NCBI GenBank assembly: GCA_016432405.1
Contig: CP066687.1
Coordinates: forward strand, 347,040 to 411,039
DNA from: Candidatus Giovannonibacteria bacterium
Lineage (GTDB): Bacteria; Patescibacteriota; Minisyncoccia; UBA11713; 2-01-FULL-45-33
Direction: 5' to 3'
Length of the DNA: 64,000 nt
Under the pieces are notes generated by a model. The model was not told where the DNA came from. It saw only the letters and a list, made by a program, of their open reading frames with translations, and searched no databases. Within the stretch, counting starts at the first letter, position 1. Every line of letters starts with the position of its first letter. This document shows, piece after piece, positions 6,803 through 58,484 of the stretch. Made by a program: the position numbers and the translations under genes.

Positions 6803-6813
6803 CAGCTAATTTT

Positions 6814-7737: not shown

Positions 7738-7749
7738 AAAATAAACGCG

Positions 7750-8094: not shown

Positions 8095-8097
8095 AAA

Positions 8098-17180: not shown

Positions 17181-17243
17181 ATGCGGCTTTTTTTTATGCA
17201 CGCCGGCTGTTATAATTAGTCTAATCGCTTGTAAAGAATAAAA

Positions 17244-28732: not shown

Positions 28733-30029
28733 TAAGGTGCGCACGCGATTTGCTCCGTCTCCGACAGGGTTTTTGCACGTTGGGGGGCTTCGCACGGCGC
28801 TGTATAATTATCTTTTCGCGAAGCAAAATGGAGGCAAATTTATTTTACGCATAGAAGATACTGACCGCGCGCGCACTGTGGAAGGAGCAGAAAAAAATAT
28901 TATTGAGACATTGCGGATTTTCGGACTGGGTTTTGACGAGGGACCGATTCGGCAATCCGATAATTTGGCAAAATATAAAAAATATTCCAAGGAATTGGTA
29001 GCCAAAGGCGCGGCTTACGAAGACGACAGCGCCGTCAGATTTAAAATGCCGAAGGACGGCGTAACTGTCTTTGCCGACATTATTCATGGCGAAATTCAAA
29101 TAGACAATAAGACGCAGGAAGATTTTGTGATTTTAAAATCGGACGGTTTCCCGACTTACAATTTGGCCCATTTGGTTGACGACCACGATATGGCCATAAC
29201 GCATGTCATCAGGGGGGACGAATTTATCTCTTCAATGCCGAAATACATCGCGCTGCATAAAGCATTCGGCTGGGAGCTTCCTCAATATGCCCACCTGCCG
29301 CTTCTTTTGGACAAAAACCGCGCCAAGCTTTCCAAGAGGGAAGGGGAGGTGGCGGTTCATGATTTTTTGGACGACGGATATCTCAAAGAGGCCGTTTTAA
29401 ATTTCGTTGCGCTTTTGGGATGGCACTCGAAAACCGATCAGGAAATTTTTTCATTGGAAGAGTTAATAAAAGAATTTAAGCTTGAGCGCGTTCAAAGAGC
29501 CGGCGCGATTTTTGATACTACGAAACTAGATTGGATGAACGGAGAATATATACAAAAAAAACCCTTAAAAGATTTGGTGGAATTAAGTAGGGGTTTTTTC
29601 CAATTTTCAATTTCCAATTTCCAATTTTCAAATGAATATTTAAAGAAAATCATCGCGCTGGAACAACCTCGCCTTAAAAAACTCTCGGAGCTTCCGGAAA
29701 AAACCAACTATTTTTTTAAAGAACCGGAATATGATGCCACGCTGTTAAAATGGAAAAATATGGATAATAAAGAAATTAAAAAATCGCTGGAAACCTCAAA
29801 AGAAATAATTTCCAATTTCCAATTTCCAATTTCCAAACACGACATAGAAAAAATATTTTTAGAGCGCGCAAAAAAGTTTAAAGATAGGGGAGAACTCTTA
29901 TGGCCCCTCCGGGTTGCCCTAACTGGCAAAAAGGCCTCCCCGGGCCCGTTTGAGATAATGGAGATTTTAGGAAAAGAAAAAAGCATCGCCCGCGTTGCCT
30001 CGGCTTTAAATATGCTAAAACCCCGTTAG
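28725..30029 (+). CDS. gltX: Glutamyl-tRNA synthetase (compact)
   Basis: RFAPSPTGFLHVGGLRTALYNY (HIGH region) and KLSKR (KMSKS variant). Confidence 0.85.
   Translation: MNSKVRTRFAPSPTGFLHVGGLRTALYNYLFAKQNGGKFILRIEDTDRARTVEGAEKNIIETLRIFGLGFDEGPIRQSDNLAKYKKYSKELVAKGAAYEDDSAVRFKMPKDGVTVFADIIHGEIQIDNKTQEDFVILKSDGFPTYNLAHLVDDHDMAITHVIRGDEFISSMPKYIALHKAFGWELPQYAHLPLLLDKNRAKLSKREGEVAVHDFLDDGYLKEAVLNFVALLGWHSKTDQEIFSLEELIKEFKLERVQRAGAIFDTTKLDWMNGEYIQKKPLKDLVELSRGFFQFSISNFQFSNEYLKKIIALEQPRLKKLSELPEKTNYFFKEPEYDATLLKWKNMDNKEIKKSLETSKEIISNFQFPISKHDIEKIFLERAKKFKDRGELLWPLRVALTGKKASPGPFEIMEILGKEKSIARVASALNMLKPR
29600..29632. repeat. 7-bp-period microsatellite (ttccaat/tttcaat units), in-frame inside gltX
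   Basis: ccaattttcaatttccaatttccaattttcaaa encodes FQFSISNFQFS. A second array at 29808..29837 encodes ISNFQFPIS. Related arrays lie at 48144..48186, 54521..54542 and 57492..57537. Confidence 0.7.
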
Positions 30030-33358: not shown

Positions 33359-33451
33359 TTGTTAGCCCTCCTTATTCGGAATTCGGGTTTCTTTACATAG
33401 CTAAGCATATGAACAATAGATTGTCAACAAGATGTGGTACTACCCTCCGCT

Positions 33452-33480
33452 GTCCGACACTTAGTTTCGGACATGACCCC
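33452..33480. repeat. 29-bp element gtccgacacttagtttcggacatgacccc
   Basis: Identical (29 of 29) to the reverse complement of 43783..43810 inside the 16S insertion. It belongs to the CCGAAACTAAGTTTCGG palindrome family. Confidence 0.8.
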
Positions 33481-33562
33481 GGACGATAAAAAATTAAAAA
33501 AGAATTTACGGTGTTGACTTCTTCTACAAGGCCTGTAAACTTGGGATAGAAAGGAGAGTTCA

Positions 33563-35169: not shown

Positions 35170-36425
35170 TTCCAGTTGTTTAAAATTTCCACTGCGCGTT
35201 CCATAACCGGGTCTCTTCCGGTGTTCGTGTCTTCTTTTGTTACTTTAACTTCAATATCCGGCGCAAGACCGCCCTCGGAGATAGATTGTCCTTTGGGCGT
35301 GAGCCATTTGGCTATGGTGACTTTCAGGGAAGTGTCCGCGGTAAGCGGAACCAGTTCCTGCACGGAAGCTTTCCCGAACGTCCGCTCGCCGACAAGTTTA
35401 GCGATGCTGTGGTCGCGCAAGGCACCAGCCAAAATTTCGGAAGCCGAAGCGGAGCCCTGATTTACCAATATGACTATCGGGGTGTTTTTAAATACGTAGT
35501 ATCCCCTGCTCCGGTGGATTATTTTTTCCGATTTTCCCCCGAAATCTTCCTGCACGACAACTTCTCCCTGCGGCAAGAACCAGCTGGCCATGTCCACCGC
35601 TGCTTCCAGATAGCCCCCGGGGTTGTTGCGCAAATCTATAATGAGTTTGGTGCGGCCTTTTTCAAGCATTTCCCGAAGAGCGTCCCTGAATTTTCCCGGA
35701 GAGTTTTCAGAAAAATTATAAAGCTTGATTATGAAAATATCCCCCAAATCCCTTTCTCCTTCCCCTCCCCTCCCGGCGCCGGCGGTTTTGGTTCCCGTAT
35801 CCACTACCGGTATTTTAATCACATCGCGCGTGATTTCTATAATGCGGCTTTCATCTTCTCCGTTTCTCAAAATAGTCAACTTTACTTTTGTGCCCTTCGG
35901 GCCGCGGATAAGGCCTACCGCCCTTTCAACGCTTAGGTCGGAAGTGATGCGGTCGTCTATTTTAAGAATTTTGTCCCCCGCTTTGATGCCCGCTTTCTCC
36001 GCAGGCGTGCTTTTTAACGGCGCTACGACTATCAAAACCTCCCGCCTTATGGCAATTTCCATCCCTACGCCTTCAAATTCCCCTTTTATGTCACTTTTGA
36101 AAATTTTATTTTCTTCCGGAGCAAAAAACACTGTGTAGGGGTCGCCCAAGGATTTAACCATCCCAGCTATCGCGCCGTAAATCATCTCTTTTCTTTTAAC
36201 TTTGTCTATGTCCACGAATTTTCCCTCCGCGATATTCCAAGCGTGCCAAAATTCCGAAAAGTCAACTTCTTCCCTGTCCGTGCCTATTTGCGGCGTTGTG
36301 TTCACAACGCCGACTAATTTGCTTGCAGCCGGCGTTTTTACGCCAAAATAAAACCCAACAGCGAAGGTTGAGGCCAAAATTAAGGCCGCGATGAACGCTA
36401 AGCCGAAGCGTTTTTTTATGTCCAT
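35166..36425 (-). CDS. C-terminal processing peptidase (S41) with PDZ domain
   Basis: LIIDLRNNPGGYL, a PDZ segment and an N-terminal TM anchor. Confidence 0.8.
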   Translation of the reverse strand: MDIKKRFGLAFIAALILASTFAVGFYFGVKTPAASKLVGVVNTTPQIGTDREEVDFSEFWHAWNIAEGKFVDIDKVKRKEMIYGAIAGMVKSLGDPYTVFFAPEENKIFKSDIKGEFEGVGMEIAIRREVLIVVAPLKSTPAEKAGIKAGDKILKIDDRITSDLSVERAVGLIRGPKGTKVKLTILRNGEDESRIIEITRDVIKIPVVDTGTKTAGAGRGGEGERDLGDIFIIKLYNFSENSPGKFRDALREMLEKGRTKLIIDLRNNPGGYLEAAVDMASWFLPQGEVVVQEDFGGKSEKIIHRSRGYYVFKNTPIVILVNQGSASASEILAGALRDHSIAKLVGERTFGKASVQELVPLTADTSLKVTIAKWLTPKGQSISEGGLAPDIEVKVTKEDTNTGRDPVMERAVEILNNWK

Positions 36426-36469
36426 ATTCGGCTATTATCGCAAAATTTTTTTTGTAGTACAATAGTGTA

Positions 36470-37798
36470 ATGCCGCCGCTTAAAATTTATAATTTTCTAA
36501 GCCGGAAAAAAGAAGTTTTCAGGCCTATAAAGAAAGGGCTGGTCGGTTTTTACGCCTGCGGGCCGACGGTATACGACTACGCCCATATCGGAAACCTCCG
36601 CACCTATATTTTTGAAGATGTTTTGCGGCGCACTCTTGAATACGCGGGATATAAGCTAAAACACGTGATGAATATTACGGATGTGGATGATAAAATAATC
36701 GCCCGCGCGCGCTTGGCCCAAAAAAACATCGGCGATTTCTCCGCGCCGTATAAAACGGCGTTTTTTGGTGACATTAAAAAAATAAATATTTTGCCGGCTT
36801 GGAAATATCCTGAAGCGACCAGGCATATTCCGGAGATGGTTAAGATGGCGAAGCGGCTGCTCCGAAAAAAGATTGCTTATCCCGCGAAAGACGGAATTTA
36901 TTTTGACATTTCAAAATTCAAGTCCTATGGCCGGCTGGCGAACCCGAGGCCGGGCGACAGAAAAGATTTTGTCATTTGGAAGTACGCCAAAAAGAATGAG
37001 CCCTTTTGGAGGTCGCCGTTCGGCCCCGGGCGGCCCGGGTGGCATCTGGAGTGCTCGGCAATGTCAATGAAATATCTGGGAGAGAGTTTTGATATCCACG
37101 CGGGCGGGGTTGATTTACTTTTTCCGCACCACGAAAACGAGATTGCGCAGTCAGAGGGCGCGACTGGCAAAAAATTCGTAAAGTACTTTGTTGAGGGCGA
37201 GCATCTTTTGGTGAACGGCAAGAAAATGTCAAAATCGCTCGGCAATATTTTTACTTTGCGCGATTTGGAGCGGCGAAATTTTAATCCCCTCGCTTTTCGC
37301 TACCTCGTTCTCTCCGCTCATTACCGCTCGCAACTTAATTTCACTTGGGAGTCGCTTAAGGCGGCGGAGAATTCGCTGGAGAGATTGCAGGAGTTTGTGC
37401 TATCGCTTAAATTGACCGAAACTAAGTTTCGGTCAATTACTGACCGAAACTTAGTTTCGGGCAAAGCTTTTCAAAAAGCCATCTGTGACGACCTAAACAC
37501 CCCAAAAGCGCTTGCTGTGGTGTATGCCGTGATGAACGAATATTATACAAATAAGGAAAAATTTGATGCGCGAGCCGTTCTGGCCCTTTTATATGATTTT
37601 GACAAGGTTTTGGGGCTTGGATTGGCCGGTATAGCACCAAAGGCCCCGCCGCCGGAAGCGTTAAAATTGTTGAAAGAGCGCGAGGCGGCAAGAAAATCGG
37701 GCGATTTTAAGAAAGCCGATAAAATTCGTGAAAAAATAAGGCGTTTGGGCTGGCAAATCAAAGATACGCGAACCGGCCCCGAACTTATTCACGCATAA
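36470..37798 (+). CDS. cysS: Cysteinyl-tRNA synthetase
   Basis: CGPTVYDYAHIGN (HIGH) and KMSKSLGN. It contains an in-frame palindromic insertion at 37424..37460. Confidence 0.9.
   Translation: MPPLKIYNFLSRKKEVFRPIKKGLVGFYACGPTVYDYAHIGNLRTYIFEDVLRRTLEYAGYKLKHVMNITDVDDKIIARARLAQKNIGDFSAPYKTAFFGDIKKINILPAWKYPEATRHIPEMVKMAKRLLRKKIAYPAKDGIYFDISKFKSYGRLANPRPGDRKDFVIWKYAKKNEPFWRSPFGPGRPGWHLECSAMSMKYLGESFDIHAGGVDLLFPHHENEIAQSEGATGKKFVKYFVEGEHLLVNGKKMSKSLGNIFTLRDLERRNFNPLAFRYLVLSAHYRSQLNFTWESLKAAENSLERLQEFVLSLKLTETKFRSITDRNLVSGKAFQKAICDDLNTPKALAVVYAVMNEYYTNKEKFDARAVLALLYDFDKVLGLGLAGIAPKAPPPEALKLLKEREAARKSGDFKKADKIREKIRRLGWQIKDTRTGPELIHA
37424..37460. repeat. Dimeric palindromic element gaccgaaactaagtttcggtc-aattac-tgaccgaaacttagtttcgg inside cysS
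   Basis: Encodes TETKFRSITDRNLVSG. A near-identical dimer lies at 50925..50973. Confidence 0.75.
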
Positions 37799-42147: not shown

Positions 42148-42295
42148 AGTATTAAAAAACTGTTATAAATAAGGGTTTTTGGACCTTTACCGCCTTTGGC
42201 GCGGCTTTAAGCCATCTTAGCACAATTTACGAATAAATAAGCGTGAGTTATTCACAAGCGGCTTCAAAATTGCTAGGATTGAAATTAACAAATTT

Positions 42296-42501
42296 GGGTG
42301 TGTAGTTCAGTGGTAGAACGCTGTCCTGACCTGCCCGCCGAACAAACCAAAATTTTGGATGCGTAGTTCAGTGGTAGAACGCTGTCCTGATAAGACAGAG
42401 GTCGGAGGTTCGATCCCTCCCGCATCCATAATCCAAAATTTTGGGTCGGCTTTGGCAGGCGGGTAAGACAGAGGTCCCAGGTTCGATCCCTGGCACACCC
42501 A
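42296..42501 (+). tRNA. Split tRNA-Ile (GAT): exon 1 at 42296..42329, exon 2 at 42464..42501, with a 134-nt insert in the anticodon
   Basis: The exons join to a 72-nt cloverleaf (acceptor gggtgtg/cacaccc, T-stem ccagg/cctgg) with anticodon loop ctGA|Taa. The insert contains a second complete tRNA. Confidence 0.5.
42357..42428 (+). tRNA. tRNA-Ile (anticodon GAT), nested inside the split tRNA
   Basis: Hand fold: acceptor ggatgcg/cgcatcc, D-stem gttc/gaac, anticodon stem ctgtc/gacag, loop ctGATaa, T-arm ggagg-ttcgatc-cctcc. Confidence 0.85.
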
Positions 42502-43373
42502 TAAAATAAAAGCACTTTTTCTTTTGTCCCGGGTCTCGAATTGAAGCTTCCGAGACCAACGCTTCACGTCAAAAATGACGCGATCGACACTTTAATTGTT
42601 GGACGCTCCGACGAAAAGTCGGAGTTGAGTACAAAAATTAAAATTGAAACTCCACGACCAGCTTCCGCTAGCCGTGCCTTGTTACGACTTACTCCCTGTC
42701 ATCCCGCCATCCTTATTCCCCGCTAAGCGGGACTTTTGGGTCGGCGGGACTTCCTTGAGTTGACGGGCGGTGAGTACAAGACTCGAGAACGTATTCACCG
42801 CAGTATAGCTGACCTGCGATTACTAGCGATTCCGTCTTCATGCGCTCGAGTTGCAGAGCGCAATCCGAACTGGGCCGGCCTTTGGTGAGATTAGCTCCGC
42901 CTCGCGGCTTCGCGACTCATTGTGGACGGCATTGTAGCACGTGTGTAGCCCAGGGCATCAAAGGGCCATGCTGACTTGGCGTCATCCCCGCCTTCCTCCC
43001 CGCGGTGCGGGGCAGTCTCTTGTGACACTTGTAACACAAAATAGGGGTTGCGTTCGTTGCCCCACTTAAGGGAACAGCTCAAGCCACGAACTGACGACAG
43101 CCATGCAGCACCTGTCCCGACGTCCTTGTGAGACGCACGCCTTTCGGCGGGCTTATCGTCGGGATTTCAAGCCCTGGTGAGGTTTTTCGTTTAACATCGA
43201 ATTGAACCACATGCTCCACCGCTTGTGCGAGTCCCCGTCTATTCCTTTGAGTTTTAAACTTGCGTTCGTACTTCCCAGGCGGATGACTTAACGCGTTAGC
43301 TTCGCCACTCGAAGGGTCGATACTTCCAATGGCTAGTCATCATCGTTTAGGGCGTGGACTACAAGGGTATCTA

Positions 43374-44003
43374 CAAATTTGTTACAACTCAATTTTACTA
43401 ATCGGTGCTAATTTTTGGAGTCAAGATTGGTGCTTGACAAATAAATTTTTATATGCTATGCTTGATATGGAGGTGATTTATGCTTGTATGGATTTGTGAG
43501 AAAACCGGGCCGCAAGGTTTAGCCCGACTTGTCTACAAAGAGTTCCTCGCGTGGATGCTCCTTGCGTCTTTGCTTGGTCAGGTTTATCTTTTGCTCCGGT
43601 AGAACCGAGGATCAAGCGATAAGAGGGAATGGAATTAAACGCTATTCCCTCTTTTTTATTTCCAAAAATTAGCACCGATTTTTTCTTGAGTGAGCAGAAT
43701 ATTTCTATCTGCTTCTGCATATCGCTATGCAGTTCGGACTATATCATGTCGCCTTTTCGGCGACCTCGGCGTATAGTCTCTACGGGGTCATGTCCGAAAC
43801 TAAGTGTCGGACAGCGGACTTCCCTCGGGATTGTCCTCCGACGCTTCGGCCGGAGGGGTTTCCCCGATATAGCTCCGACGAAAACCTCTCGGTTTTGTCG
43901 GAGTCCGACTTCACTATTAAAATAAATAGTGCGTCGGACCAAGTTTTTTATCCTCGGAATTTATTCCGAGGGGACTAAGCTGCCTTGTAAACAGCATTTG
44001 TTA
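43374..44003 (-). other. Intron-like insertion in the 16S gene at the h24 loop (E. coli position about 788/789)
   Basis: It interrupts the universally conserved GGAT|TAGATACCC block. The 3' two-thirds is dense in hairpins (for example ctccgacgaaaacc/ggttttgtcggag and cctcggaa/ttccgagg). No LAGLIDADG, GIY-YIG or HNH ORF is present. Confidence 0.6.
43407..43673 (+). mobile_element. Cassette with terminal inverted repeats (gctaatttttgg … ccaaaaattagc) carrying promoter, sORF and terminator, embedded in the 16S insertion and antisense to the rRNA
   Basis: TTGACA at 43434-43439, 17-nt spacer, TATGCT. SD ggaggtg and an ATG at 43480 open a 40-codon ORF running to TAG at 43602. Terminator agagggaat…attccctct plus T6. 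Paralog at 56433..56795. Confidence 0.5.
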
Positions 44004-44715
44004 ATCCTTTTTGATCCCCACGCTTTCGTGTTTCAGGGTCAGGAATGCCCCAGCAAGCTGCCTTCGCCTTTGGTGTTCCCCACGATATCAACGGATTTCA
44101 CCCCTACACCGTGAGTTCCGCTTGCCTCTGGCATCCTCCTAGTTTTGCCGTTTCCCGCCCATCTCTCCGGTTAAGCCGGAGTTTTTAAAACGGGACTAAC
44201 AAAACCCCCTACACACCCTTTACGCCCAGTAAATCCGGATAACGCTCGGGCTCCTCGTATTACCGCGGCTGCTGGCACGAGGTTAGCAAGCCCTTATTCT
44301 TAGGGTACAGTCATTTTTTTCCTCCCTTAAAAAAGCAGTTTACGCCCCGAAGGGCTTCCTCCTGCACGCGGCGTCGCTCGATCAGGCTTTCGCCCATTGT
44401 CGAATATTCTCGGCTGCTGCCACCCGTAGGTGTATGGACCGTTCTCAGTTCCATTGGTGGGGGCCAAGCTCTCACTCCCCCTAGCCGTCGTCGCCTTGGT
44501 GGGCCATTACCCCGCCAACAAGCTGATAGCCCGCAGGCCTCTCCCAGAGCCAATCTAAGTGTTTTAATCTCACGATACTATCGGGAATTAGCTCCGCTTT
44601 CGCGGAGTTATGCCCGTCTCTGGGGTGAGTTCCTACGTGTTACTACCCCGTCTGCCACTATCCCGCACCTTTTATTGCTAAAGGGTGCGGGACCGTATGA
44701 CTTGCATGCCTTATC

Positions 44716-44755
<40 letters not shown>

Positions 44756-45058
44756 AATAAGAAAAATTTCTTGCGAAATTTTTCTACTACGGGACAAAAG
44801 AAAAAATGCTCAAAATTTAACTGACTTAATTTTTTGGTGCAATTTTCTAAATTTTCAAGGTTCTCTTTTTGGGTCAAAACTCCTCAACAGGGCTCGGAGT
44901 AAATAAACCCGCGATAAGACCCCAAAGATCCTATCGCGGATTTACTATGCTAATTTTTCAAAATAGATTCAAAATAGATTAAAAGGTATCTGTGCCTCCG
45001 GCCATCTCAATATAAGTTAACCTATAATAATTCCATTATACTCGCCTAAAAAACGCCG

Positions 45059-47619: not shown

Positions 47620-48182
47620 TTTTACAGACCCGCCTGCCGGACGGGCAGGAAGAAAACAAAATATTGCGCAAAAGCGCCGATTCTGTCCAAAGCCAAAACC
47701 TGCCGGAAATTAAGGCGCTCATCAAAAAAATGGCCGCAGCGATGTTCGCGGAGCCCGATGGCATCGGCATTGCCGCTCCGCAAATCGGGGTTTCTCTCCG
47801 GATTTTTTTGGTTGCCAAGGAAGCGGCCGTAAAAAATGCCGAGGAATTGCATGAAAGAATCGGAGATAAAAACAAAAAGAGAAATACAGAGCATTTAGTT
47901 TTCATAAACCCCGTACTCAAAAAATTCTCATCTAAAAAAATAAGGGACGTTGAAGGATGCCTTTCTGTGCGCGGGGTTTACGGCGAGGTGCCGAGGGCGG
48001 AACAAATTACAATTGAGTATTGTGACGAATTCGGGAAAAAGCGTCAGCGCGGCGCCTCGGGGCTTTTTGCGCGGGTCTTACAGCACGAGCTGGATCATCT
48101 GGACGGCATTTTATTTATTGATAAAGCAAAGAACTTGAAACGAATTTCCAATTCTCAATTTCCAATTTCCAATGAAAATTGA
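47616..48182 (+). CDS. def: Peptide deformylase
   Basis: GIGIAAPQIG, EGCLS and QHELDHLDG motifs. The C-terminal tail is built from the 7-bp repeat. Confidence 0.85.
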   Translation: MILQTRLPDGQEENKILRKSADSVQSQNLPEIKALIKKMAAAMFAEPDGIGIAAPQIGVSLRIFLVAKEAAVKNAEELHERIGDKNKKRNTEHLVFINPVLKKFSSKKIRDVEGCLSVRGVYGEVPRAEQITIEYCDEFGKKRQRGASGLFARVLQHELDHLDGILFIDKAKNLKRISNSQFPISNEN

Positions 48183-48186
48183 AAAT
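48144..48186. repeat. 7-bp-period repeat array in inverted arrangement at the def/fmt junction
   Basis: tttccaattctcaatttccaatttccaatgaaaattgaaaatc encodes …ISNSQFPISNEN* and then MKIENLKLKI. Confidence 0.65.
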
Positions 48187-48921
48187 CTAAAATTAAAAAT
48201 TGTTTTTTTCGGCGCTTCGCCGTTTTCATACGTCTATCTTGACGCTCTTAAAAATTCCGGTTTTGAGATTGTCCCGCAAGCCGAGGATGCGGACCTCGGC
48301 GTTATTGCCTACTACGGCAAAATTATACCGAAAGCGGTTTTGGAGCTCCCTAAGTACGGGTTTTTAAATGCCCACCCCTCGCTCCTCCCGCGATGGCGGG
48401 GGGCGTCTCCCGTGCAATCCGCTATTCTGGCCGGGGATAAAATTACGGGTGTAACTATACACATAGCGACGGAGAAGCCGGATGCCGGGCCGATTTTAGC
48501 CCAGAAAAAAATACCAATAGAGCCAAAGGATACTTGTTTAAATTTAACAGGGAAACTCGCCCGGGAAGGCGCCGCGCTTTTAATTCCAACCATTGAAAAA
48601 CAGCTTGCCGGCGAAATCGCGCCAAAAAAACAGGACGATTCCAAAGCGACTTACACCAAGTTGCTTAAGAAAAAAGACGGGGAAATTGACTGGTCAAAGC
48701 CGGCCGACTATATAGAAAAAATGGTACGGGCTTACAGCCCATGGCCGGGGGCGTATACCAGAATGAAGAACGGCAGAATTTTAAAAATAAAAAAGGCAGA
48801 GGTTGTAAATGGAGTTTTAAAGCCCCTCATCGTTCAGCCGGAAGGCAAAAAAGAAATGCCCTGGGAGGCGTTTTTGCGCGGGCACAAAGACGCTATCGAA
48901 ATAACATCGCGGCCCCAATAG
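48172..48921 (+). CDS. fmt: Methionyl-tRNA formyltransferase
   Basis: HPSLLPRWRGASPVQSAIL formyltransferase signature. The def-fmt pair is conserved. Confidence 0.85.
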   Translation: MKIENLKLKIVFFGASPFSYVYLDALKNSGFEIVPQAEDADLGVIAYYGKIIPKAVLELPKYGFLNAHPSLLPRWRGASPVQSAILAGDKITGVTIHIATEKPDAGPILAQKKIPIEPKDTCLNLTGKLAREGAALLIPTIEKQLAGEIAPKKQDDSKATYTKLLKKKDGEIDWSKPADYIEKMVRAYSPWPGAYTRMKNGRILKIKKAEVVNGVLKPLIVQPEGKKEMPWEAFLRGHKDAIEITSRPQ

Positions 48922-50702: not shown

Positions 50703-51359
50703 CTATTTTTTAAACACTATAAATTTAAAACCGGTAAAATTCCAGATAAGCACGGCGATGTTGGCGATAAATTTCGCGTAATTCAGCCATTTTGACGACC
50801 CGACCGTCTCAATGATTGAAGCCGGCGCGTAAGTGGTGAGAACCACAATCAACACGCTGTTTATAATAAGTCCGCCAACGCCAACGGCGAAAAATTTTGG
50901 GAAGTCATGAAACAAGCTGATTTTGTCCGAAACTAAGTTTCGGTCAGTAAGTGACCGAAACTTAGTTTCGGACGTTTCGGACGAAAAAACCCAGAGTTTG
51001 TTCCACAAGTATCCGTTTATCACCGCAATTAAAAATCCGGGCGCATTGACCCAGCCGACAATTATGCCGGCGGTCACGCCTGTAAGATAACTTGTCAGGT
51101 TGAGAACCGCAAAGTCAATCGCCGTGGAAAGAAACCCCGCGGCGGCGTAGCGGCCGAATTGCGAAAAAAACGGTTTCACTCGCGCCCCGAGAAAGTCCCC
51201 GAACCAAACCCCCGCCGCCCAGAGAACCGGCAGTAAAACCAAAGCGGCAAGATTTTGGTACGGGAAAGAAATTTTTAAAAAATACAAAATTGCCAGCGTA
51301 AGCGCCCCGGTCAAAATTCCCGCAACCGCCCCGATCCAATAATCTTTTTTGATAATCAT
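50703..51359 (-). CDS. GtrA-like membrane protein
   Basis: 4-TM GtrA-type topology. It contains an in-frame palindromic insertion. Confidence 0.5.
   Translation of the reverse strand: MIIKKDYWIGAVAGILTGALTLAILYFLKISFPYQNLAALVLLPVLWAAGVWFGDFLGARVKPFFSQFGRYAAAGFLSTAIDFAVLNLTSYLTGVTAGIIVGWVNAPGFLIAVINGYLWNKLWVFSSETSETKFRSLTDRNLVSDKISLFHDFPKFFAVGVGGLIINSVLIVVLTTYAPASIIETVGSSKWLNYAKFIANIAVLIWNFTGFKFIVFKK
50925..50973. repeat. Dimeric palindromic element gtccgaaactaagtttcggtc-agtaag-tgaccgaaacttagtttcggac inside the GtrA-like gene
   Basis: Encodes SETKFRSLTDRNLVSD on the minus strand. Same family as 37424..37460. Confidence 0.75.
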
Positions 51360-54198: not shown

Positions 54199-55782
54199 TG
54201 GGTTTTAGTGTTGTTGATATTGGCCTTGGCAGCGTTTTTCCGTTTTTGGGATTTAAAGAGCGCCCCGCCGGGGCTTTGGGCGGATGAGGCAGTAAATGGC
54301 GTCAACGCGCTGCGGGTTATTGAAACTAATCCGCCAGCTGGCGGATGGAAAGTTTTTTATCCGGAAAATTTCGGCCGCGAAGGCCTTTTTATAAACATTC
54401 AATCCGTTTTTGTAAAATCATTCGGCACCGAGCCGTGGGTATTGCGCTTGCCGTCGGCGATATTTGGAGTATTAACTATTTTAGGACTATATTTAATGAC
54501 TTTGGAATTGTTTAGGAATTCGAAATTAGAAATTGAAAATTCTCATGGCGAGTTCATTGCTTTGGCATCATCATTATTTCTCGCCACGAGCTTTTGGCAT
54601 ATTAATTTCTCGCGGATAGGATTCCGCGCGATTATGGCGCCGTTTTTTTTGGTGTGGAGTTTTTATTTTTTACTAAAAGGAACGTCGAGACGTCCGACGT
54701 CCTATGGACGTCGGACGTCCATAATTATTCTCGCCGGCTTCACTTTCGGCCTTGGCTTCCATTCATATATCGCTTATCGCATCGCGCCGGTAATTGCGCT
54801 GTTACCGCTGTGGAAATTTTACAAAAACTGGAAAAATCAGGAAGCCGGACTTCCACTTGGAAGTCCGGCTTCCAAGTACTGCGCTCCGTGCTTTATTGGA
54901 CTTTTTATTTTCGCCGCTTTCATCGCCTCGCTCCCCCTTCTTTGGTATTACGTCCAAAATCCGCAGGATTTTTTGGGGCGGACGGCGGCGATTTCAATTT
55001 TTGACGCTCCCAGCCCGCTCGGACAATTTTCAGAAAATCTTATAAAAACGCTGGGGATGTTCAATATCGCTGGCGATTTCAACTGGCGGCACAATCTCAC
55101 CGGCTCTCCGCAGCTTTGGTGGCCAGTGGGAATTTTATTTTTAATCGGCATATGGAAATCGCTTAAAAAATTACAGTGGCCATATAGTTTTGTGTTGCTG
55201 TGGTTTATAACGATGCTTTTGCCGGTTGCCGTTTCCAATGAATCTTTGCCGCACGCGCTCCGCGCGATTATTTTAATTCCGCCAGCGATGATTTTCGCCG
55301 CCTTGGGGCTAAATTGGCTTTGGGAAAATGTCAAGCCGCAGTTCAGGATTTTTATTTATATTTTTTTGGCCACCGCCGTGCTTCAGGCCTACAGCCAGTA
55401 TTTTTTACACTGGGCGCCGAATTTCAACGTTCATCAGGCATTTCAGACAGAAATTACCGAAAAGGCACGCTGGCTTAAGGCAGAGCCCAAAGACATAAAA
55501 AAATACGTCGTTACCGACGCGGTTGACCAAGCGGACACAACCGGCACGCCGATGTCCTTTCAGCCGATAGTTTTTATCACGGACACCTTTTATTCGCAGA
55601 AACAGGCGGAGAAAAATATTTATTATATTTCTTTAAAGAATCTTGATTACGCGGATTGTTCCCAAAAATGCGAGTTTCTGCCCGTGGAATACCGCCCAGC
55701 TATTTTTAAAACAATCAAACAAAAAATCCCGGGCTTGCGCTTAGACGCCTCTTCGGGATTTGTGGTATTAAAAAATTATTGA
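54187..55782 (+). CDS. GT39/ArnT-family glycosyltransferase (PMT_2-like)
   Basis: N-terminal WADEAVNGVNALRVIE and more than 10 TM helices. Paralog of 56820..58484. Confidence 0.65.
   Translation: MKNHWVLVLLILALAAFFRFWDLKSAPPGLWADEAVNGVNALRVIETNPPAGGWKVFYPENFGREGLFINIQSVFVKSFGTEPWVLRLPSAIFGVLTILGLYLMTLELFRNSKLEIENSHGEFIALASSLFLATSFWHINFSRIGFRAIMAPFFLVWSFYFLLKGTSRRPTSYGRRTSIIILAGFTFGLGFHSYIAYRIAPVIALLPLWKFYKNWKNQEAGLPLGSPASKYCAPCFIGLFIFAAFIASLPLLWYYVQNPQDFLGRTAAISIFDAPSPLGQFSENLIKTLGMFNIAGDFNWRHNLTGSPQLWWPVGILFLIGIWKSLKKLQWPYSFVLLWFITMLLPVAVSNESLPHALRAIILIPPAMIFAALGLNWLWENVKPQFRIFIYIFLATAVLQAYSQYFLHWAPNFNVHQAFQTEITEKARWLKAEPKDIKKYVVTDAVDQADTTGTPMSFQPIVFITDTFYSQKQAEKNIYYISLKNLDYADCSQKCEFLPVEYRPAIFKTIKQKIPGLRLDASSGFVVLKNY
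54689..54720. repeat. Palindromic element gacgtccgacgtcc-tat-ggacgtcggacgtc, in-frame (encodes RRPTSYGRRTS)
   Basis: Identical core to 58054..58085. Same family as 46866..46907. A 7-bp repeat lies upstream at 54521..54542. Confidence 0.75.
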
Positions 55783-55821
55783 ACTATACAAGTACTCACG
55801 ATCGTATAAATTTGTATAGAC
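55781..55821. repeat. Direct repeat downstream of Cas2-like copy 3 (actatacaagtactcacgatcgtataaatttgtatagac)
   Basis: Matches 56373..56413 (actatacacttttacacgatcgttggaatttgtatagac). The core is 22 of 25 identical. Confidence 0.7.
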
Positions 55822-55825
55822 GCAT

Positions 55826-56347
55826 CTATTTAGTATTTATAGTGCCCTTATTTTGTACCGTGAAAATATGAATGTTGGACATTAAGTTCATCTCTTCTAA
55901 ATTTTCTAAGAATTCCTGAGGTAACGGTCGCTCCCCCATCCATACACTTTTTTGTAAAGGCTTAAAATCGTAGGCAACTAGTTCTATTCTTAACCAATCG
56001 CGCTTTCTTCGCTCGCGCTCTGGAACGTCAAATATTACAATCCTTAAAATGCCGTCTTTTTTGGGCAAATCAAATGCGTTATCCGTTTTTGTGTTTTTGA
56101 TAAATTTTTTACCCAAATTCGTTATTCCCCACGTGTTATTTTTTCTTTCCACCAAGCCTTGTTTTTGCAATCTGGTCAAAATAACGGAAAAGGTTTGACG
56201 TTTAAATTGATAGTTTGAATCCAGCCCTAAAAGTTGCCTCCAGGCTCTTGCTTGCGGATACTTTTTTGGAAAAAAAGAATCCAGAGTCGCAAAACCTAAG
56301 TCGCCGATGGTTTTTAGGGTCAATTTAGTAAGATTTAGTTTTTTCAT
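55826..56347 (-). CDS. wHTH plus Cas2-like domain protein (PaaX-like), copy 3
   Basis: LRIVIFDVPERERRKRDWLRIELVAYDFKPLQKSVW aligns with copy 1. Confidence 0.55.
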   Translation of the reverse strand: MKKLNLTKLTLKTIGDLGFATLDSFFPKKYPQARAWRQLLGLDSNYQFKRQTFSVILTRLQKQGLVERKNNTWGITNLGKKFIKNTKTDNAFDLPKKDGILRIVIFDVPERERRKRDWLRIELVAYDFKPLQKSVWMGERPLPQEFLENLEEMNLMSNIHIFTVQNKGTINTK

Positions 56348-56372
56348 GTTTCAATATTGTTCCAATACTACC

Positions 56373-56413
56373 ATACTATACACTTTTACACGATCGTTGG
56401 AATTTGTATAGAC
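56373..56413. repeat. Direct repeat upstream of Cas2-like copy 3
   Basis: See 55781..55821. It is followed immediately by the TIR cassette. Confidence 0.7.
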
Positions 56414-56432
56414 CATTGTGAATTAATCCGGT

Positions 56433-56795
56433 ACTAATTTTCGGAGTCAAGGATTGGTGCTTGACAGGCTAAAATTAGATATGGTAAACTTCAACAAGAA
56501 TAAGGAGGGAAGGAGGGCTAGAGTATGATAGAGATAACAGAGTGTAAGGATAGCATAATCATTATTTCTTGGCATCCAGGACACTTTACAGCAAACGAGG
56601 GCGCACAGCATGACCGTATCAGAGATTTAATGAGGAGGGGCTATAGACTGATTTCCAACGGAGTAACGTCTGAAGGAGCTATCACGTTACAAGCAATTCC
56701 TCCTGTTACCAAAGACTGAAGAATGATATGTCCTGCATCCGTACAGATGGCGCATCGCTTTTATAGATGCGCTATTTCTTTTTCCAAAAATTAGC
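56433..56795 (+). mobile_element. Second copy of the TIR cassette with promoter, sORF and terminator
   Basis: actaattttcggagtcaaggattggtgcttgaca matches the 16S-insert copy. TTGACA is at 56461. SD aaggagggaaggaggg opens a 64-codon ORF at 56525..56719. Terminator gcgcatc…gatgcgc plus T-run. Right TIR ccaaaaattagc is at 56784. Confidence 0.5.
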
Positions 56796-56819
56796 GCTAT
56801 TTAATGATAGAATGAGGGT

Positions 56820-58484
56820 ATGGATAAATATGCCAATGTTTTAGCGGTTTTGATGCTTGTAGCGATGTTCGGGCTGATGCTTGCTTCCAGTTGGAACGAT
56901 TCGGCGATTTTTGACGAGGTGGCGCATATCGGCGCGGGTTATACTTATCTTAAATATCTGGACGGGCGGTTAAATCCGGAGCACCCGCCGCTTCTCAAGA
57001 GCATGGCCGCTTTGCCGCTTTTGTTTTTATCCGCCAGTGGGCGGATTAAAGAAAATATCGCGGCGCAGCCATTTTGGACTATGGAGAATGTAAATGACCG
57101 CCAATGGGCCACGGGTAATTATCTTTTATATGAGGCGGGCAATGACGCGGACCGGATTCTTTTCTGGTCGCGCCTGCCGATGATTCTGCTTACGATATTG
57201 TTTGGCTGGATATTATTTTCTTGGGTAAAAAAGCGCTATGGCGCAGCGGTGGGGTTGCTTACTTTGTTTTTCTTCGCTGTCTCCCCCACTTTTTTGGCGC
57301 ATGGCCGATACGTAACAACAGACGTCGGCGCCGCGCTCGGATTTTTCCTGGGAATAATTTTCTTTTTGCGGTTTTTGGAACGGCAAGATTTAAAGTCAGC
57401 AACTTGGCTCGGTGTAGTGTTGGGGCTTGTCTTGCTTTTTAAATTCTCTTTAGTTTTATTACTCCCGATTTATTTAATAATTTTAATATTTAAAAATTGG
57501 AATTTGATTGAAAATTGGAAATTGAAAATTAGAAATTTAGCGTTAGCCACCATTATCGCGCTCGCTGTAATTTACGCCGCGTATATTCCGCAAATCTGGG
57601 GTTATCCGCATGACCAGCAGATGAAAGACGCGCGCTACATCCTTGCCGGCTATCAGTATCCCTCTTTGGCCAAGCTGGATTTTTGGCTGACCGAACAAAC
57701 GCTCACAAGGCCGCTTGGGCTTTACCTGCAAGGATTTTTGATGGTTGCGCGGCGCACCGCCGGTGGGAACACGGCCTATTTTATGGGTGAAATTTCATCA
57801 AAAGGATGGTGGTCCTATTTTCCGGTTCTGGCAATCACAAAAGAACAGCTGGGGTTTTATATTCTGGCGATAATTGCTTTATTTACGGCGATTAAGAATC
57901 GGGCTCGGCCGGATTTTAATTCGCTCGCGGCTATTATTTTTATAATTTTTTACTGGGCAAGCTCAATTTTAAATCCTCTTAACATCGGCGTACGGCATGT
58001 TCTGCCGACTTTCCCTTTTCTTTACTTTTTGGTTGCGAAAGGCTTAATTTCAGGACGTCCGACGTCCTATGGACGTCGGACGTCCATATATTTAATTAGC
58101 ACTTGGATGATTATAGAAACACTTTTTGCTTTCCCATATTATCTTTCTTACTACAACATTTTGGGCGGCGGCGAAGAAAACGGATATAAAATCGCAACCG
58201 ATTCAAACTACGACTGGGGGCAAGACCTAAAACGTTTGACGTTTTGGGTGAAAGAAAACAATCTAGATAAAATTTATCTTGATTATTTCGGAGGCGGCTC
58301 GCCTAAATATTATCTGGGCGATAAATTTGAGCCGTGGTGGCCAGCAAAGGGCGCACCTCCCCGGGAAAGCTATTTCGCGATCTCTATAAATAGTTTAGCC
58401 GGGTCGGAGAATTTATATCCTTGGCTGAAAAGTAAAAACCTCGCTGCGCGCGCCGGCAGTTCAATCTTAATCTACAGGTTTTAA
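56820..58484 (+). CDS. GT39/ArnT-family glycosyltransferase, paralog
   Basis: WNDSAIFDEVAHIGAGYTYL and more than 10 TM helices. It carries the 7-bp repeat (57492..57537) and the palindrome (58054..58085) at positions equivalent to those in its paralog. Confidence 0.65.
   Translation: MDKYANVLAVLMLVAMFGLMLASSWNDSAIFDEVAHIGAGYTYLKYLDGRLNPEHPPLLKSMAALPLLFLSASGRIKENIAAQPFWTMENVNDRQWATGNYLLYEAGNDADRILFWSRLPMILLTILFGWILFSWVKKRYGAAVGLLTLFFFAVSPTFLAHGRYVTTDVGAALGFFLGIIFFLRFLERQDLKSATWLGVVLGLVLLFKFSLVLLLPIYLIILIFKNWNLIENWKLKIRNLALATIIALAVIYAAYIPQIWGYPHDQQMKDARYILAGYQYPSLAKLDFWLTEQTLTRPLGLYLQGFLMVARRTAGGNTAYFMGEISSKGWWSYFPVLAITKEQLGFYILAIIALFTAIKNRARPDFNSLAAIIFIIFYWASSILNPLNIGVRHVLPTFPFLYFLVAKGLISGRPTSYGRRTSIYLISTWMIIETLFAFPYYLSYYNILGGGEENGYKIATDSNYDWGQDLKRLTFWVKENNLDKIYLDYFGGGSPKYYLGDKFEPWWPAKGAPPRESYFAISINSLAGSENLYPWLKSKNLAARAGSSILIYRF

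Follow-up and report, generated by a model that had tools for sequence, protein, structure and literature searches.

CPR/Patescibacteria are well known for the insertions that their rRNA genes contain, and these have so far been explained as homing-endonuclease introns or as ORF-less remnants. Group I introns in CPR 16S and 23S genes were reportedly described by Brown et al. in 2015. The locus analyzed here raises the question of what an insert without an endonuclease gene contains when it splits a universally conserved site of a 16S rRNA gene and appears to carry a transcription unit of its own on the opposite strand. The window, which is the whole stretch of DNA analyzed (64,000 nucleotides), comes from a CPR host, since its DnaB is 97% identical to that of Ca. 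Giovannonibacteria RIFCSPHIGHO2_01_FULL_45_24. We propose that the locus probably holds two nested elements, a group I intron and, within it, a mobile or recombining mini-cassette, for which the rRNA gene would be a safe harbour.

RESULTS

A group I intron splits the 785-797 motif of the 16S rRNA gene

The 16S rRNA gene of the window (42640 to 44761, minus strand) matched the Rfam model SSU_rRNA_bacteria (RF00177) over its full length (1300 bits, model positions 1-1533). When the exons were aligned to this bacterial covariance model, 635 nt remained unaligned between GGAUUA and CC(U)UG, which places the extra sequence inside the 785-797 motif. Direct reading of the sequence showed that exon 1 (44004-44761, minus strand) ends with GGAU at 44004, that the intron runs from 44003 to 43374 (630 nt), and that exon 2 (42640-43373, minus strand) starts with UAGAUACCC at 43373. 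The insertion point, GGAU|UAGAUACCC, corresponds to E. coli position 788/789 approximately, after U788. The initial annotation had placed an insert at 43374-44003, with a GGAT| junction inside the conserved 785 region, and both the coordinates and the junction were right.

The insert (43374 to 44003, minus strand) begins with UAACAAAUG and ends with GUAACAAAUUUG, with the omega-G at 43374. The internal guide sequence UAGUCC (43972 to 43977, minus strand) forms P1 by pairing with GGAU|UA, and the 5' splice site is marked by a U.G pair. This pairing is unchanged in the homologous intron of locus L003 and co-varies in that of L009 to GGAU|CG : UGGUCC. RNAalifold analysis of 15 homologous introns placed the 3' half of the catalytic core at 43694 to 43778 (minus strand), with P7 at 43772-43778/43737-43743, P3' at 43765-43770, P8 at 43748-43764, P9 at 43715-43732, and P9.1 at 43694-43712. 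Compensatory changes were found in 17 of the 25 core pairs, and P7 (GACUAUA/UAUAGUC) was invariant. About 30 CPR 16S genes, a subset of the 47 matches to the 3' junction pattern, carry an intron at position ~788 with this P7-P9.1 core and the 3' end GUAACAAAnnUG|UAGAUACCC. The same-site homologues, the core covariation, the P1 U.G pair, and the omega-G thus identify as group I what the initial annotation had called an intron.

The Rfam model Intron_gpI (RF00028) matched positions 43715-43937 with 38.8 bits (E = 2.9e-8), which is below the gathering score of 50, while homologous introns at the same site scored above it (L003, 72.6 bits; L065, 55.1 bits; L064, 52.8 bits; L008, 52.1 bits). The low score of the window intron is due to hairpin insertions in P3 and P6. 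Comparison with L009 revealed P3 as CUUGG..C/GCCGAG, the 5' strand of which (CUUGG at 43939-43943 plus C at 43872) is split in the window by two (C)UCCGAC...GUCGGA(G) hairpins of 66 nt in all (43873 to 43938, minus strand). This double hairpin is missing from L009, a close homologue. A 36-nt hairpin (43783 to 43818, minus strand) extends P6; an identical copy, 36/36 complementary in the repeat search, is intergenic at 33446-33481 (plus strand).

A below-threshold score and several extra hairpins might also be seen in a pseudogene or an assembly artefact, in which the insert would undergo no biological processing. However, the 16S exons are intact across the full model, the leader/trailer processing stem that flanks the gene was found in the repeat search, and the same architecture recurs in many independent assemblies. 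Furthermore, one 16S copy is normal in CPR genomes (PMC11270868). We consider a pseudogene or artefact extremely improbable. By its sequence, the insert is a group I intron that lacks an endonuclease gene and is of a known kind, with same-site homologues in dozens of CPR/Patescibacteria 16S genes. Since it splits the essential 790 loop, it would have to be spliced from the pre-rRNA, and we assume that it is competent to splice.

The window intron contains no homing-endonuclease ORF, as had been annotated. Large ORFs (>200 aa) are found in P8 of some homologous introns and are presumably homing endonucleases, which would fit the literature (PMC11270868). An 80-aa ORF on the rRNA-sense strand of the window intron (43478-43720) was rejected, as it lacks a Shine-Dalgarno (SD) sequence and is conserved in no homologous intron.

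The intron carries a predicted antisense transcription unit between inverted repeats

Inside the 3' terminal stem of the intron lies a 281-bp cassette (43400-43680, plus strand, antisense to the rRNA). It is bounded by perfect 20-nt inverted repeats, AATCGGTGCTAATTTTTGGA on the left (43400 to 43419, plus strand) and TCCAAAAATTAGCACCGATT on the right (43661 to 43680, plus strand), with 2 matches observed versus 0.04 expected. At the base of the cassette, the inverted-repeat stem is lengthened by UUGAGU (43387 to 43392, minus strand), the 3' half of an outer stem that pairs with ACUCAA (43686-43691); the outer stem in L003, L009, L025, and L030 is CUCAAGAA/UUCUUGAG. The predicted RNA fold closes the cassette by the inverted-repeat stem with a z score of -6.5.

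The left repeat is followed by a dyad, GTCAAG-N7-CTTGAC, that overlaps the -35 element; dyad and promoter together span 43420 to 43462 (plus strand) and are kept in all family members. The predicted promoter consists of TTGACA (43434-43439), a 17-nt spacer, and TATGCT (43457-43462), with an extended -10 TG at -15/-14. The pattern TTGACA-N13-15-TGnTAnnnT occurs twice in the 64 kb versus 0.01 expected, and the two occurrences are those of the two window cassettes. GGAGG (43469-43473, plus strand) stands 6 nt before the ATG at 43480 of a predicted 40-codon ORF (43480-43602, plus strand), the product of which, MLVWICEKTGPQGLARLVYKEFLAWMLLASLLGQVYLLLR, has a hydrophobic C-terminal half. A terminator-like hairpin, AGAGGGAAU/AUUCCCUCU followed by T6 (43622-43652, with the T-run to 43660, plus strand), directly adjoins the right inverted repeat with its T-run. 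Its stem is 9 bp long, and a simple terminator scanner missed it because the loop is 13 nt.

The initial annotation had described inverted repeats, a near-consensus sigma-70 promoter, a strong SD with an ATG and a 40-codon ORF, and a rho-independent terminator on the strand antisense to the rRNA. Each of these was located, and the repeats turned out to be longer than first stated. The observation is thereby confirmed and its first interpretation supported, with promoter, ORF, and terminator standing as predictions. The 40-aa product has no homologue, not even a self-match, and no family match, and the shuffle test of this ORF alone is weak (p = 0.12).

A second window cassette shares only its ends and promoter with the first

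An intergenic cassette at 56428 to 56800 (plus strand) is bounded by degenerate inverted repeats (56428-56445 and 56783-56800). It has a predicted promoter, TTGACA-18-TAAACT (56461-56490, plus strand), followed by GGAGG, a 64-aa ORF (56525-56719, plus strand), and a predicted terminator hairpin (56750-56772, plus strand) with a T-run. The sequence at 56433..56795 had been taken for a second copy of the intron cassette. While it does belong to the same family, it is not the same cassette: the ORF and the terminator are unrelated, and the two cassettes have in common the left ~60 nt (inverted repeat and promoter) and the right end CCAAAAATTAGC, and nothing else. The second cassette is overlapped by no obvious antisense gene, and its junction shows a possible TTAAT duplication.

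The 64-aa ORF is an orphan, which matches only itself in contigs of the same organism and in the same context. Exhaustive HMMER searches returned giant repeat proteins of the mucin or chitin-binding type, each matched over a different short stretch, and we judged these matches to be repeat-summation artefacts. Pfam and PHROGs searches with ten cargo proteins gave only sub-threshold matches, which were driven by transmembrane composition.

Cassettes with the same layout recur at non-homologous sites in related genomes

About 17 cassettes with common ends, promoter, and layout were found in related genomes. The loci with this layout are L003, L008, L009 (two cassettes), L013, L020, L024, L025, L030, L064 (four units), and L065. 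The cassettes are 250-735 bp in size; the window holds 2 copies, and L064 holds 4 units. The order SD-ATG-ORF-hairpin-T-run is the same in every member, and the terminator sequences are unrelated. The outer bases of the inverted repeats vary between cassettes, with both arms co-varying (271 of 286 positions Watson-Crick); the polarity of the mismatches (9 versus 6 G.U-compatible) does not separate constraint at the RNA level from constraint at the DNA level.

The cargo is unrelated between cassettes, comprising mostly small membrane peptides, some soluble proteins, and one tRNA-like gene. Most cargo proteins are peptides of 34-76 aa that have basic tails and are predicted to span the membrane once or twice. 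Among the nine peptides scored for hydrophobicity, six have a strongly hydrophobic 19-residue window (maxKD19 > 2.1); at 1.71, the peptide of the window intron is borderline. Hydrophilic cargo proteins occur in window cassette 2, L008, L020, L064, and L065. The SD-ATG ORFs run much longer than those of shuffled sequence (Fisher combined p = 6e-7, 9 cassettes).

The cassettes are located in the P6 loop of the intron in L008, L009, and L020, in the 3' terminal stem of the intron in the window, in the V3 helix and upstream of the 16S gene in L064, downstream of the 16S gene in L024, and in an intergenic region in the case of window cassette 2. The V3 cassettes of L064 and L065 sit at the tip of a ~55-bp stem. 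All cassettes in or near a 16S gene are antisense to the rRNA. The S788 introns of L018 and L046 contain small sense-oriented ORFs without a promoter or a T-run terminator.

Since most 16S-centred loci were retrieved by intron or cassette patterns, the census is biased, and its unbiased part consists of the DnaB-anchored loci and the window. The DnaB-anchored loci cover ~140 kb and one 16S gene; all 4 units lay within that gene or next to it, and the remainder had none. Six genomes contributed the roughly 120 kb that is without a 16S gene. The promoter pattern had no match in the genome contigs and viral contigs searched; in one metagenome scan it gave one true match (L003) and one chance match (L002).

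This distribution bears on whether the inverted repeat could be the intron's own peripheral P9.x stem, with the promoter-, SD-, and terminator-like motifs and the ORF arising by chance in a lineage-specific loop. Group I introns often have long peripheral stems and variable loops, and the 40-aa ORF, with no homologue and a weak shuffle test, would agree with that idea. On the other hand, sites that are not homologous to one another (P6 loop, V3 helix, leader, trailer, and intergenic DNA) have these ends and this promoter in common, the full promoter pattern and the combined ORF test exceed chance, and the order of elements is one and the same in every member. As the layout is conserved in ~17 cassettes of other genomes, it is not a chance pattern; the idea is already largely refuted, and we find it highly improbable.

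Cargo is apparently exchanged at fixed sites

The window and L009 introns are 85% identical beside the cassette and carry unrelated cargo. Similarly, L064 and L065, which encode an identical DnaB protein, have different cargo in the same intron loop. In L064, two units stand in tandem inside one pair of inverted repeats, with the first terminator fused directly to the GGAG of the second promoter. Also in L064, a single 16S gene harbours two paralogous cargo genes, of 74 and 78 aa, at different sites; their pN/pS of about 1.7, on 12 changes, gives no sign of purifying selection. It is from this distribution and polymorphism that we infer the cassettes to be mobile.

At about 12 junctions inspected, no target-site duplication was seen, save the possible TTAAT at window cassette 2. 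Searches for an empty palindromic platform, closely spaced ends, or a circular junction found none, and no linked transposase, recombinase, or integrase was present around either window cassette or in the examined loci. A Y1_Tnp gene occurs in a related genome (L076), unlinked to the cassette.

One mechanism for such exchange would be integron-like site-specific recombination, in which units with the bounds TTTTT|GGAG ... TTTTT|CC are inserted, excised, and stacked on a palindromic platform, GCTAATTTTTGG/CCAAAAATTAGC, by a dedicated recombinase encoded elsewhere. The fused tandem units of L064, the replacement of cargo at a fixed site between strains, the lack of target-site duplications, and the conserved ends around unrelated interiors are all consistent with this mechanism. 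However, the examined loci contain no linked recombinase or integrase, neither the empty platform nor a circular-junction sequence was found, there is a single tandem array only, and exchange by homologous recombination at the conserved ends would leave an identical pattern. We consider such a recombination system quite unlikely.

Cargo expression may depend on rRNA transcription

Every cassette has a canonical SD, yet the host 16S lacks the CCUCC anti-SD at its 3' end, as seen when 3' ends were compared. In case the anti-SD had been separated by a 3'-terminal intron, it was searched for downstream of the 16S gene, and none was found. Loss of the anti-SD is a known trait of part of the Parcubacteria, and the host genes make little use of SD sequences. 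Efficient translation of the cargo in this host is therefore not assured.

The geometry suggests that the cassettes might be regulatory or toxin modules that benefit the host, of the type I toxin-antitoxin kind. The abundant pre-rRNA or the excised intron would be the antisense repressor of a small membrane peptide, so that this peptide would appear only upon a collapse of rRNA transcription, such as that expected in dormancy, under starvation, or after shut-off by a phage. The prevalence of short transmembrane peptides with basic tails would suit such a role, as would the complete overlap of all rRNA-associated cassettes by the rRNA-sense transcript and their clustering at the most strongly transcribed locus. 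Against it, the cargo includes several hydrophilic proteins and a tRNA-like gene, window cassette 2 has no obvious overlapping antisense gene, and the cargo turns over between strains without purifying selection. A role of this kind appears unlikely to us. In the broader form of this idea, the cassettes would be a previously unrecognised cassette-exchange system on hairpin-tolerant sites of single-copy 16S genes, with the pre-rRNA as antisense repressor and the peptides confined to times at which no ribosomes are being made, for example dormancy or an abortive-infection-like response; this we likewise regard as a doubtful proposition.

DISCUSSION

The features of the family favor a nested pair of intron and mini-cassette. 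The cassette would be an autonomous transcription unit on the opposite strand, in which a small ORF is preceded by an SD and a strong extended -10 sigma-70 promoter and is followed by an intrinsic terminator. The family may insert or recombine where an extra hairpin is tolerated, namely, in the intron loops P6 and P9.x, in variable helices, and in the leader/trailer. In the pre-rRNA, the inverted repeats would pair as a 20-bp stem and extrude the cassette as a closed domain, so that the fold of the ribozyme or the rRNA would be undisturbed. The exclusively antisense orientation is plausibly explained by the fact that a sense-oriented terminator would truncate the rRNA transcript. We see the cassette mainly as a selfish or mobile mini-element of a very compact genome, the cargo of which would likely be expressed inversely to rRNA transcription, as the two transcripts converge and can pair as sense and antisense.

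At least part of the "ORF-less" intron class thus appears to hide complete predicted antisense transcription units with interchangeable cargo, several of which can share one 16S gene. Provided that these units are transcribed, the cell's most conserved gene also houses fast-turnover small-protein genes in organisms short of intergenic space, and peptide expression could be coupled to rRNA synthesis. The cassettes would have a bearing on the annotation of small proteins in CPR genomes and on the survival of selfish DNA in streamlined genomes, and they would account for some breaks and chimeras in metagenome assemblies of 16S genes. They also sharpen an existing puzzle, that of perfect Shine-Dalgarno sites in hosts whose 16S rRNA has lost the anti-SD.

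Several known systems resemble parts of this arrangement. MITEs, Correia elements, RPEs, and REP/BIME are short, multi-copy, non-autonomous elements bounded by inverted repeats, which may carry promoters and enter RNA genes as hairpins. The cassettes are like MITEs in that they are small, end in inverted repeats, reach several copies per genome, and have no internal transposase. However, MITEs normally have no complete promoter-SD-ORF-terminator unit with variable cargo, and for the cassettes neither a target-site duplication nor a cognate transposase was found. Integrons are alike only in tandem stacking and cargo exchange; they rely on an integrase and attI, and their cassettes are promoterless with an attC end, whereas the cassettes described here have their own promoter and terminator in loci without an integrase. 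Phage morons are autonomous promoter-ORF-terminator units that are inserted within other transcription units or between them and that often encode a small membrane protein with no known function. The cassettes differ from them in lying outside prophages, in being bounded by inverted repeats, and in their nested antisense position within an rRNA gene. Type I toxin-antitoxin systems (hok/sok, fst, and tisB/istR) combine a small hydrophobic peptide gene that has a strong promoter with an abundant overlapping antisense RNA. In the case of the cassettes, the antisense RNA would be the pre-rRNA or the intron, and the cargo is not all hydrophobic.

Among rRNA introns, the closest relatives are the group I introns of CPR 16S and 23S genes (Tsurumaki et al. 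2024, PMC11270868), which likewise combine a universally conserved rRNA site with a group I fold and occur at one site in ORF-less and LAGLIDADG versions of high similarity outside the ORF. In contrast to the present analysis, that study annotates only Pfam-recognisable ORFs of the endonuclease type, and a term search of the paper found no mention of antisense units, promoters, or inverted repeats. Literature searches likewise yielded no account of MITEs, promoters, or antisense elements in the rRNA introns of CPR bacteria. The cassette family is apparently undescribed, and it is the cassette, not the intron, that is new. The intervening sequence (IVS) of 23S genes in Coxiella burnetii and Leptospira, which encodes S23p, is also a selfish element in an rRNA gene, with terminal inverted repeats that enclose an ORF; the repeats form a stem of roughly 28 bp in the pre-rRNA, the site of RNase III excision (PMC4990558). 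In Coxiella, S23p belongs to one conserved family and is read from the 23S primary transcript, with no promoter of its own described (PMC4990558), whereas the cassettes have an antisense ORF, their own promoter and terminator, and unrelated cargo, and the copy in the window 16S gene interrupts an intron and not the rRNA itself. Finally, IStrons, such as CdISt1 of Clostridioides difficile (PMC13011429), combine a group I intron with an IS200/IS605-type element. As proposed for the window locus, a second mobile element is nested in the 3' part of the intron and is removed with the intron by splicing. The cassette has no transposase or TnpB, is bounded by long perfect inverted repeats in place of IS605-type subterminal hairpins, and is antisense with its own expression signals.

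An S788 group I intron in the 16S rRNA gene

The 16S rRNA gene lies on the minus strand (42640-44761) and matches the Rfam bacterial SSU model over its full length with 1300 bits. In the local alignment, 635 bases were left unaligned between GGAUUA and CC(U)UGUAGUCC, the universally conserved 785-797 motif. Direct reading of the minus strand showed that exon 1 ends in GGAU at 44004, that the insert runs from 44003 to 43374 (630 nt), and that exon 2 starts with UAGAUACCC at 43373. Arithmetic allows three junctions, and only the one after GGAU satisfies the requirements of group I introns: a U preceding the 5' splice site and a G at the end of the intron. The insert coordinates and the junction in the initial annotation were thus correct.

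The scan with intron models that the initial annotation proposed gave a group I match at 43715-43937 (minus; 38.8 bits, E 2.9e-8), although this score is below the Rfam gathering score of 50. The score is low because the window intron, compared with its close homologue in locus L009, contains an extra 66-nt double hairpin of the CUCCGAC...GUCGGAG type in the 5' strand of P3 and an extra 36-nt hairpin in P6. A metagenome contig (L003) retrieved with the cassette-promoter pattern has a same-site intron with a score of 72.6 bits. A second scan of the collections, using the 3' junction pattern GTAACAAA-N1-2-TG|TAGATACCC, returned 47 loci, of which about 30 are CPR 16S genes (Parcubacteria, Saccharibacteria and other lineages) interrupted by an intron at this exact position. 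All these S788 homologues share P7 (GACUAUA/UAUAGUC), P8, P9, P9.1 and the 3' end, and an alignment of 15 introns showed compensatory changes in 17 of the 25 predicted pairs. In P1, UAGUCC pairs with GGAU|UA and contains the canonical U.G pair; the helix co-varies in L009 (GGAU|CG with UGGUCC). The P1 pairing, the core covariation and the same-site homologues of up to 72.6 bits identify the intron claimed earlier as group I.

The window intron is therefore another CPR rRNA group I intron, of a kind already known. According to Tsurumaki et al. 2024 (PMC11270868), 35% of the insertions (≥100 bp) found in CPR 16S genes are group I introns, and versions with and without an ORF share the same conserved sites. 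In some homologous introns P8 carries large ORFs (>200 aa), which, if they encode LAGLIDADG homing endonucleases, belong to the class described by Tsurumaki et al. 2024. Since the 790 loop is essential and CPR 16S genes are single-copy, we infer that the intron is spliced out of the pre-rRNA. A 30-nt leader/trailer complementarity (42502-42531/44790-44819, 83%) flanks the 16S gene and probably forms the stem at which pre-16S is processed, with a trailer of about 110 nt but a leader of only about 30 nt.

The host DnaB is 97% identical to that of Ca. Giovannonibacteria RIFCSPHIGHO2_01_FULL_45_24, of which the host is a close relative. The window encodes DnaK, DnaB, CysRS, SerRS, AlaRS and a PBP, and is an ordinary chromosome segment. 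In loci L055-L058 (DnaB 97% identical), an N6_N4 methyltransferase gene and an MjaV-like restriction gene (6639-8580) lie between the S41 peptidase and CysRS genes, whereas the pair is absent from the window (36425-36470); the gene order past RmuC also differs.

A family of cassettes with variable cargo

The intron contains a cassette at 43400-43680 on the plus strand, antisense to the rRNA. Its inverted repeats (43400-43419/43661-43680) are real, but they are longer than first stated: 20 nt and perfect, with 0.04 matches expected by chance. Between them, the plus strand carries the promoter (TTGACA-17-TATGCT with a TG extended -10), the SD (GGAGG, 6 nt before ATG), the 40-codon ORF and the predicted terminator (a 9-bp hairpin followed by T6), each found in the sequence as described in the initial annotation. 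The 64-kb window contains only two matches to the complete promoter pattern TTGACA-N13-15-TGnTAnnnT (0.01 expected), and both belong to cassettes, the second being the intergenic cassette 2 (56428-56800, plus). The observation of an antisense, inverted-repeat-bounded cassette in the 16S intron was confirmed, and the sequence comparisons support its interpretation.

Using a left-end profile, we found the same architecture in L003, L008, L013, L020, L024, L025, L030, L009 and the identical L028 (two cassettes, L009A and L009B), L064 (four units) and L065/L066, which shows that the cassettes are a family and not a chance pattern. All members have a fixed order: an arm ending in CTAATTTTTGGAG, a dyad, the promoter, SD-ATG, the ORF, a hairpin with a T-run, and the other arm. 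The dyad (GTCAAG-N1-10-CTTGAC) overlaps the -35 element in every member, and the promoter reads TTGACA, 17-18 nt, TGnTAnnnT. The SD is GGAGG (often GGAGGTG; AAGGA(G) in a few members), located 3-10 nt before ATG. Every member has the terminator-like hairpin and T-run, and the hairpin sequences are unrelated. The outer inverted-repeat bases vary by cassette (ATCGGTGC, ATCGATGC, TTCAGTAC, CCGAGCAC, ATCGATGCTG and others), and a change in one arm is always matched in the other, 271 of 286 positions being Watson-Crick.

The cargo is unrelated from cassette to cassette. L003, L009B, L013, L024, L025 and L030 encode peptides of 34-76 aa scored as having one or two strongly hydrophobic segments; the 59-aa ORF of L065 and the 36-aa second ORF of L064 are hydrophobic by inspection, and the 40-codon window peptide is borderline. 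Hydrophilic cargo of 64-93 aa was found in window cassette 2, L008, L020, L064 and L065, while L009A carries a tRNA-like gene (31.6 bits with the Rfam tRNA model) with an aberrant anticodon arm. The SD-ATG ORFs are much longer than in shuffled sequence (Fisher combined p = 6e-7, nine cassettes). No cargo protein matched Pfam or PHROGs, and both window cassette ORFs were orphans in homology searches.

Sites, orientation and turnover

Cassettes occupy the 3' terminal intron stem in the window, L003, L009A, L013, L025, L030, L064 and L065, and the P6 loop in L008, L009B and L020. Outside introns, L064 (16385-16775) and L065 (16078-16470) have a cassette in V3 (helix 17) of the mature 16S, on the tip of a perfect stem of about 55 bp; it is either removed as an RNase III-type IVS or retained in a 16S with an expansion of about 470 nt. 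Another cassette lies 260 nt upstream of 16S in L064, one lies about 200 nt downstream of 16S in L024, and window cassette 2 has a PaaX-like gene on one side and a glycosyltransferase gene on the other. The cassette is thus independent of the intron. Every cassette in or adjacent to 16S, over six distinct kinds of site, is antisense to the gene. The DnaB-anchored loci give an unbiased sample, about 140 kb of non-redundant DNA from seven related genomes; the single 16S gene that it includes has all four units within or next to it, and none was found away from it.

The cassettes turn over quickly. Between the window and L009, the intron beside the cassette is 85% identical and the cassette ends 73-84%, while the cargo is unalignable; L064 and L065 have identical DnaB proteins but different intron-cassette cargo. 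In L064, two tandem units share one inverted-repeat pair, with the T-run of terminator 1 fused directly to the GGAG of promoter 2. The ORF of the first tandem unit has a counterpart in the V3 cassette of the same L064 gene (paralogues of 74 vs 78 aa, 64 identical codons); this pair, the only one of its kind, showed no purifying selection (pN/pS ~1.7, 12 changes), and in-frame indels keep the frame. At 16900-17698, the L065 contig exits 16S at a V1-region cassette and runs into an unrelated coding region. It is probably an assembly chimera because the cassette ends are repeated, which is a practical hazard for metagenome assembly of cassette-bearing 16S genes.

Shine-Dalgarno sequences in an anti-SD-less host

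The 3' end of the host 16S (42640-42660, minus) reads ...GGAGUUUCAAUUU and lacks the CCUCC anti-SD, as do most CPR 16S genes retrieved; part of the Parcubacteria is known to lack it (PMC9297842). The cassettes, by contrast, all have canonical GGAGG(TG) sites. SD enrichment was weak in the window genes (14/58 vs 5/50 in the internal control). The cassettes may be adapted to another translation context, as horizontal spread would imply, or else GGAGG serves a different role.

Proposed working and mobility

The 3' part of the intron is predicted to fold into P9, P9.1, an ACUCAA/UUGAGU stem and the 20-bp inverted-repeat stem, which would close a separate multi-branch domain (z = -6.5). While the sequences show the family with its anatomy, distribution, orientation and polymorphism, the following account of how the cassette may work is our inference. 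Pairing of the arms in the pre-rRNA would extrude the cassette, so that the ribozyme or rRNA helix could still fold; the inverted-repeat-bounded IVS of 23S rRNA (PMC4990558) follows the same extrusion principle. Antisense orientation would be expected if an intrinsic terminator in the sense orientation cut the rRNA short. Consistent with this account, the sense-oriented small ORFs of the S788 introns L018 and L046 have an SD without a promoter or T-run terminator. The cassette terminator, in turn, would stop antisense transcription short of exon 1. Since the cell's most heavily transcribed RNA fully overlaps the unit, we speculate that cassette expression is probably low during high rRNA synthesis, through convergent transcription as well as RNA duplexes.

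We favor the cassette being a selfish, mobile or recombining mini-element, which would persist in a very compact genome at its few sites that are neutral and tolerate hairpins. No target-site duplication, empty site or linked transposase/recombinase was found at the cassette loci inspected. Two mechanisms, site-specific recombination at TTTTT|GG or CC and homologous recombination between the conserved ends, are each compatible with the junction of the tandem units and with cargo exchange at a fixed site.

Other repeats and nested genes

The 36-nt P6 hairpin (43783-43818, minus; UCCGCUGUCCGACACUUAGUUUCGGACAUGACCCCG) has a perfect intergenic copy at 33446-33481 (plus), 10 kb apart, which suggests movement of small hairpin elements between the intron and sites elsewhere. 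GC-rich CUCCGAC-loop-GUCGGAG hairpins occur twice in P3 (43873-43938, minus), once in the 16S trailer (42606-42624, minus), and in introns or trailers of L003, L013, L034 and L064; the related CCUGCC...GGCAGG hairpins are also recurrent. Both types are possibly REP-like elements. A related genome (L076, 13294-13947) has a Y1_Tnp (PF01797) gene.

At 42295-42505 (plus), the anticodon loop of a tRNA-Ile(GAU)-like gene is split between anticodon positions 35 and 36, and a complete but different tRNA-Ile(GAU) gene (42356-42429) is nested there. Bases 42295-42329 and 42464-42505 form the two outer halves, whose acceptor and T stems contain compensatory differences. CCUGCC/GGCAGG arms close the insert of 134 nt, and the inner tRNA has CCAAAATTTTGG palindromes on either side. 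Only the inner tRNA was reported by ARAGORN and Rfam, and the arrangement was found in none of the related loci.

Two PaaX_M/Cas2-like HTH paralogues (173 aa, 38% identical; 1829-2350, plus, and 55826-56347, minus) lie in modules (1781-2386 and 55783-56413) each flanked by a 35-39-nt direct repeat pair with CGATCG-centred dyad symmetry. These modules are a second kind of repeat-flanked gene module, and PaaX_M genes recur in L055, L068 and L080. AT-rich intergenic repeats of the AATTTCCAATTTCC type are located at 29602-29646, 29807-29851, 48143-48204 and 57476-57537. Their GAAATTGGAAATT motif fills the 3' terminal stem of cassette-free S788 introns in many CPR lineages and also flanks the L065 V1 cassette. 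The palindromic families GACGTCCGACGTCC...GGACGTCGGACGTCC (54689-54723, 58054-58088) and CCGAAACTAAGTTTCGG doublets (37405-37465, 50916-50971) each have at least two window copies. The S788 introns L018, L046, L047, L050, L025 and L017 contain small sense ORFs (54-87 aa, GGAG-type SD), none of Pfam-type endonuclease length, in peripheral stems closed by other inverted repeats (in L018, the 21-nt ACTTGTACACTTTGTTGAGAG).

Comparison with known systems

While the window intron belongs with the CPR rRNA group I introns, the cassette resembles several known elements in part but departs from each in a defining feature. ORF-bearing rRNA IVSs, among the nearest resemblances, likewise place an inverted-repeat stem in an rRNA gene, but they are not antisense with their own promoter and terminator. 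In IStrons, too, a group I intron harbours a further element at its 3' end; however, they have a transposase and IS605-type ends, both absent from the cassette. MITEs are similar, but the cassette carries a complete, variable gene and is without target-site duplication. Integron cassettes are promoterless and depend on an integrase, whereas the present cassette has its own promoter and no integrase. There is also a resemblance to phage morons and, for most cargo, to type I toxin genes. Our literature search found no description of such antisense promoter-ORF-terminator units. To our knowledge, this family of nested cassettes is a variant of small mobile elements, in an unusual niche, that has not been described before.
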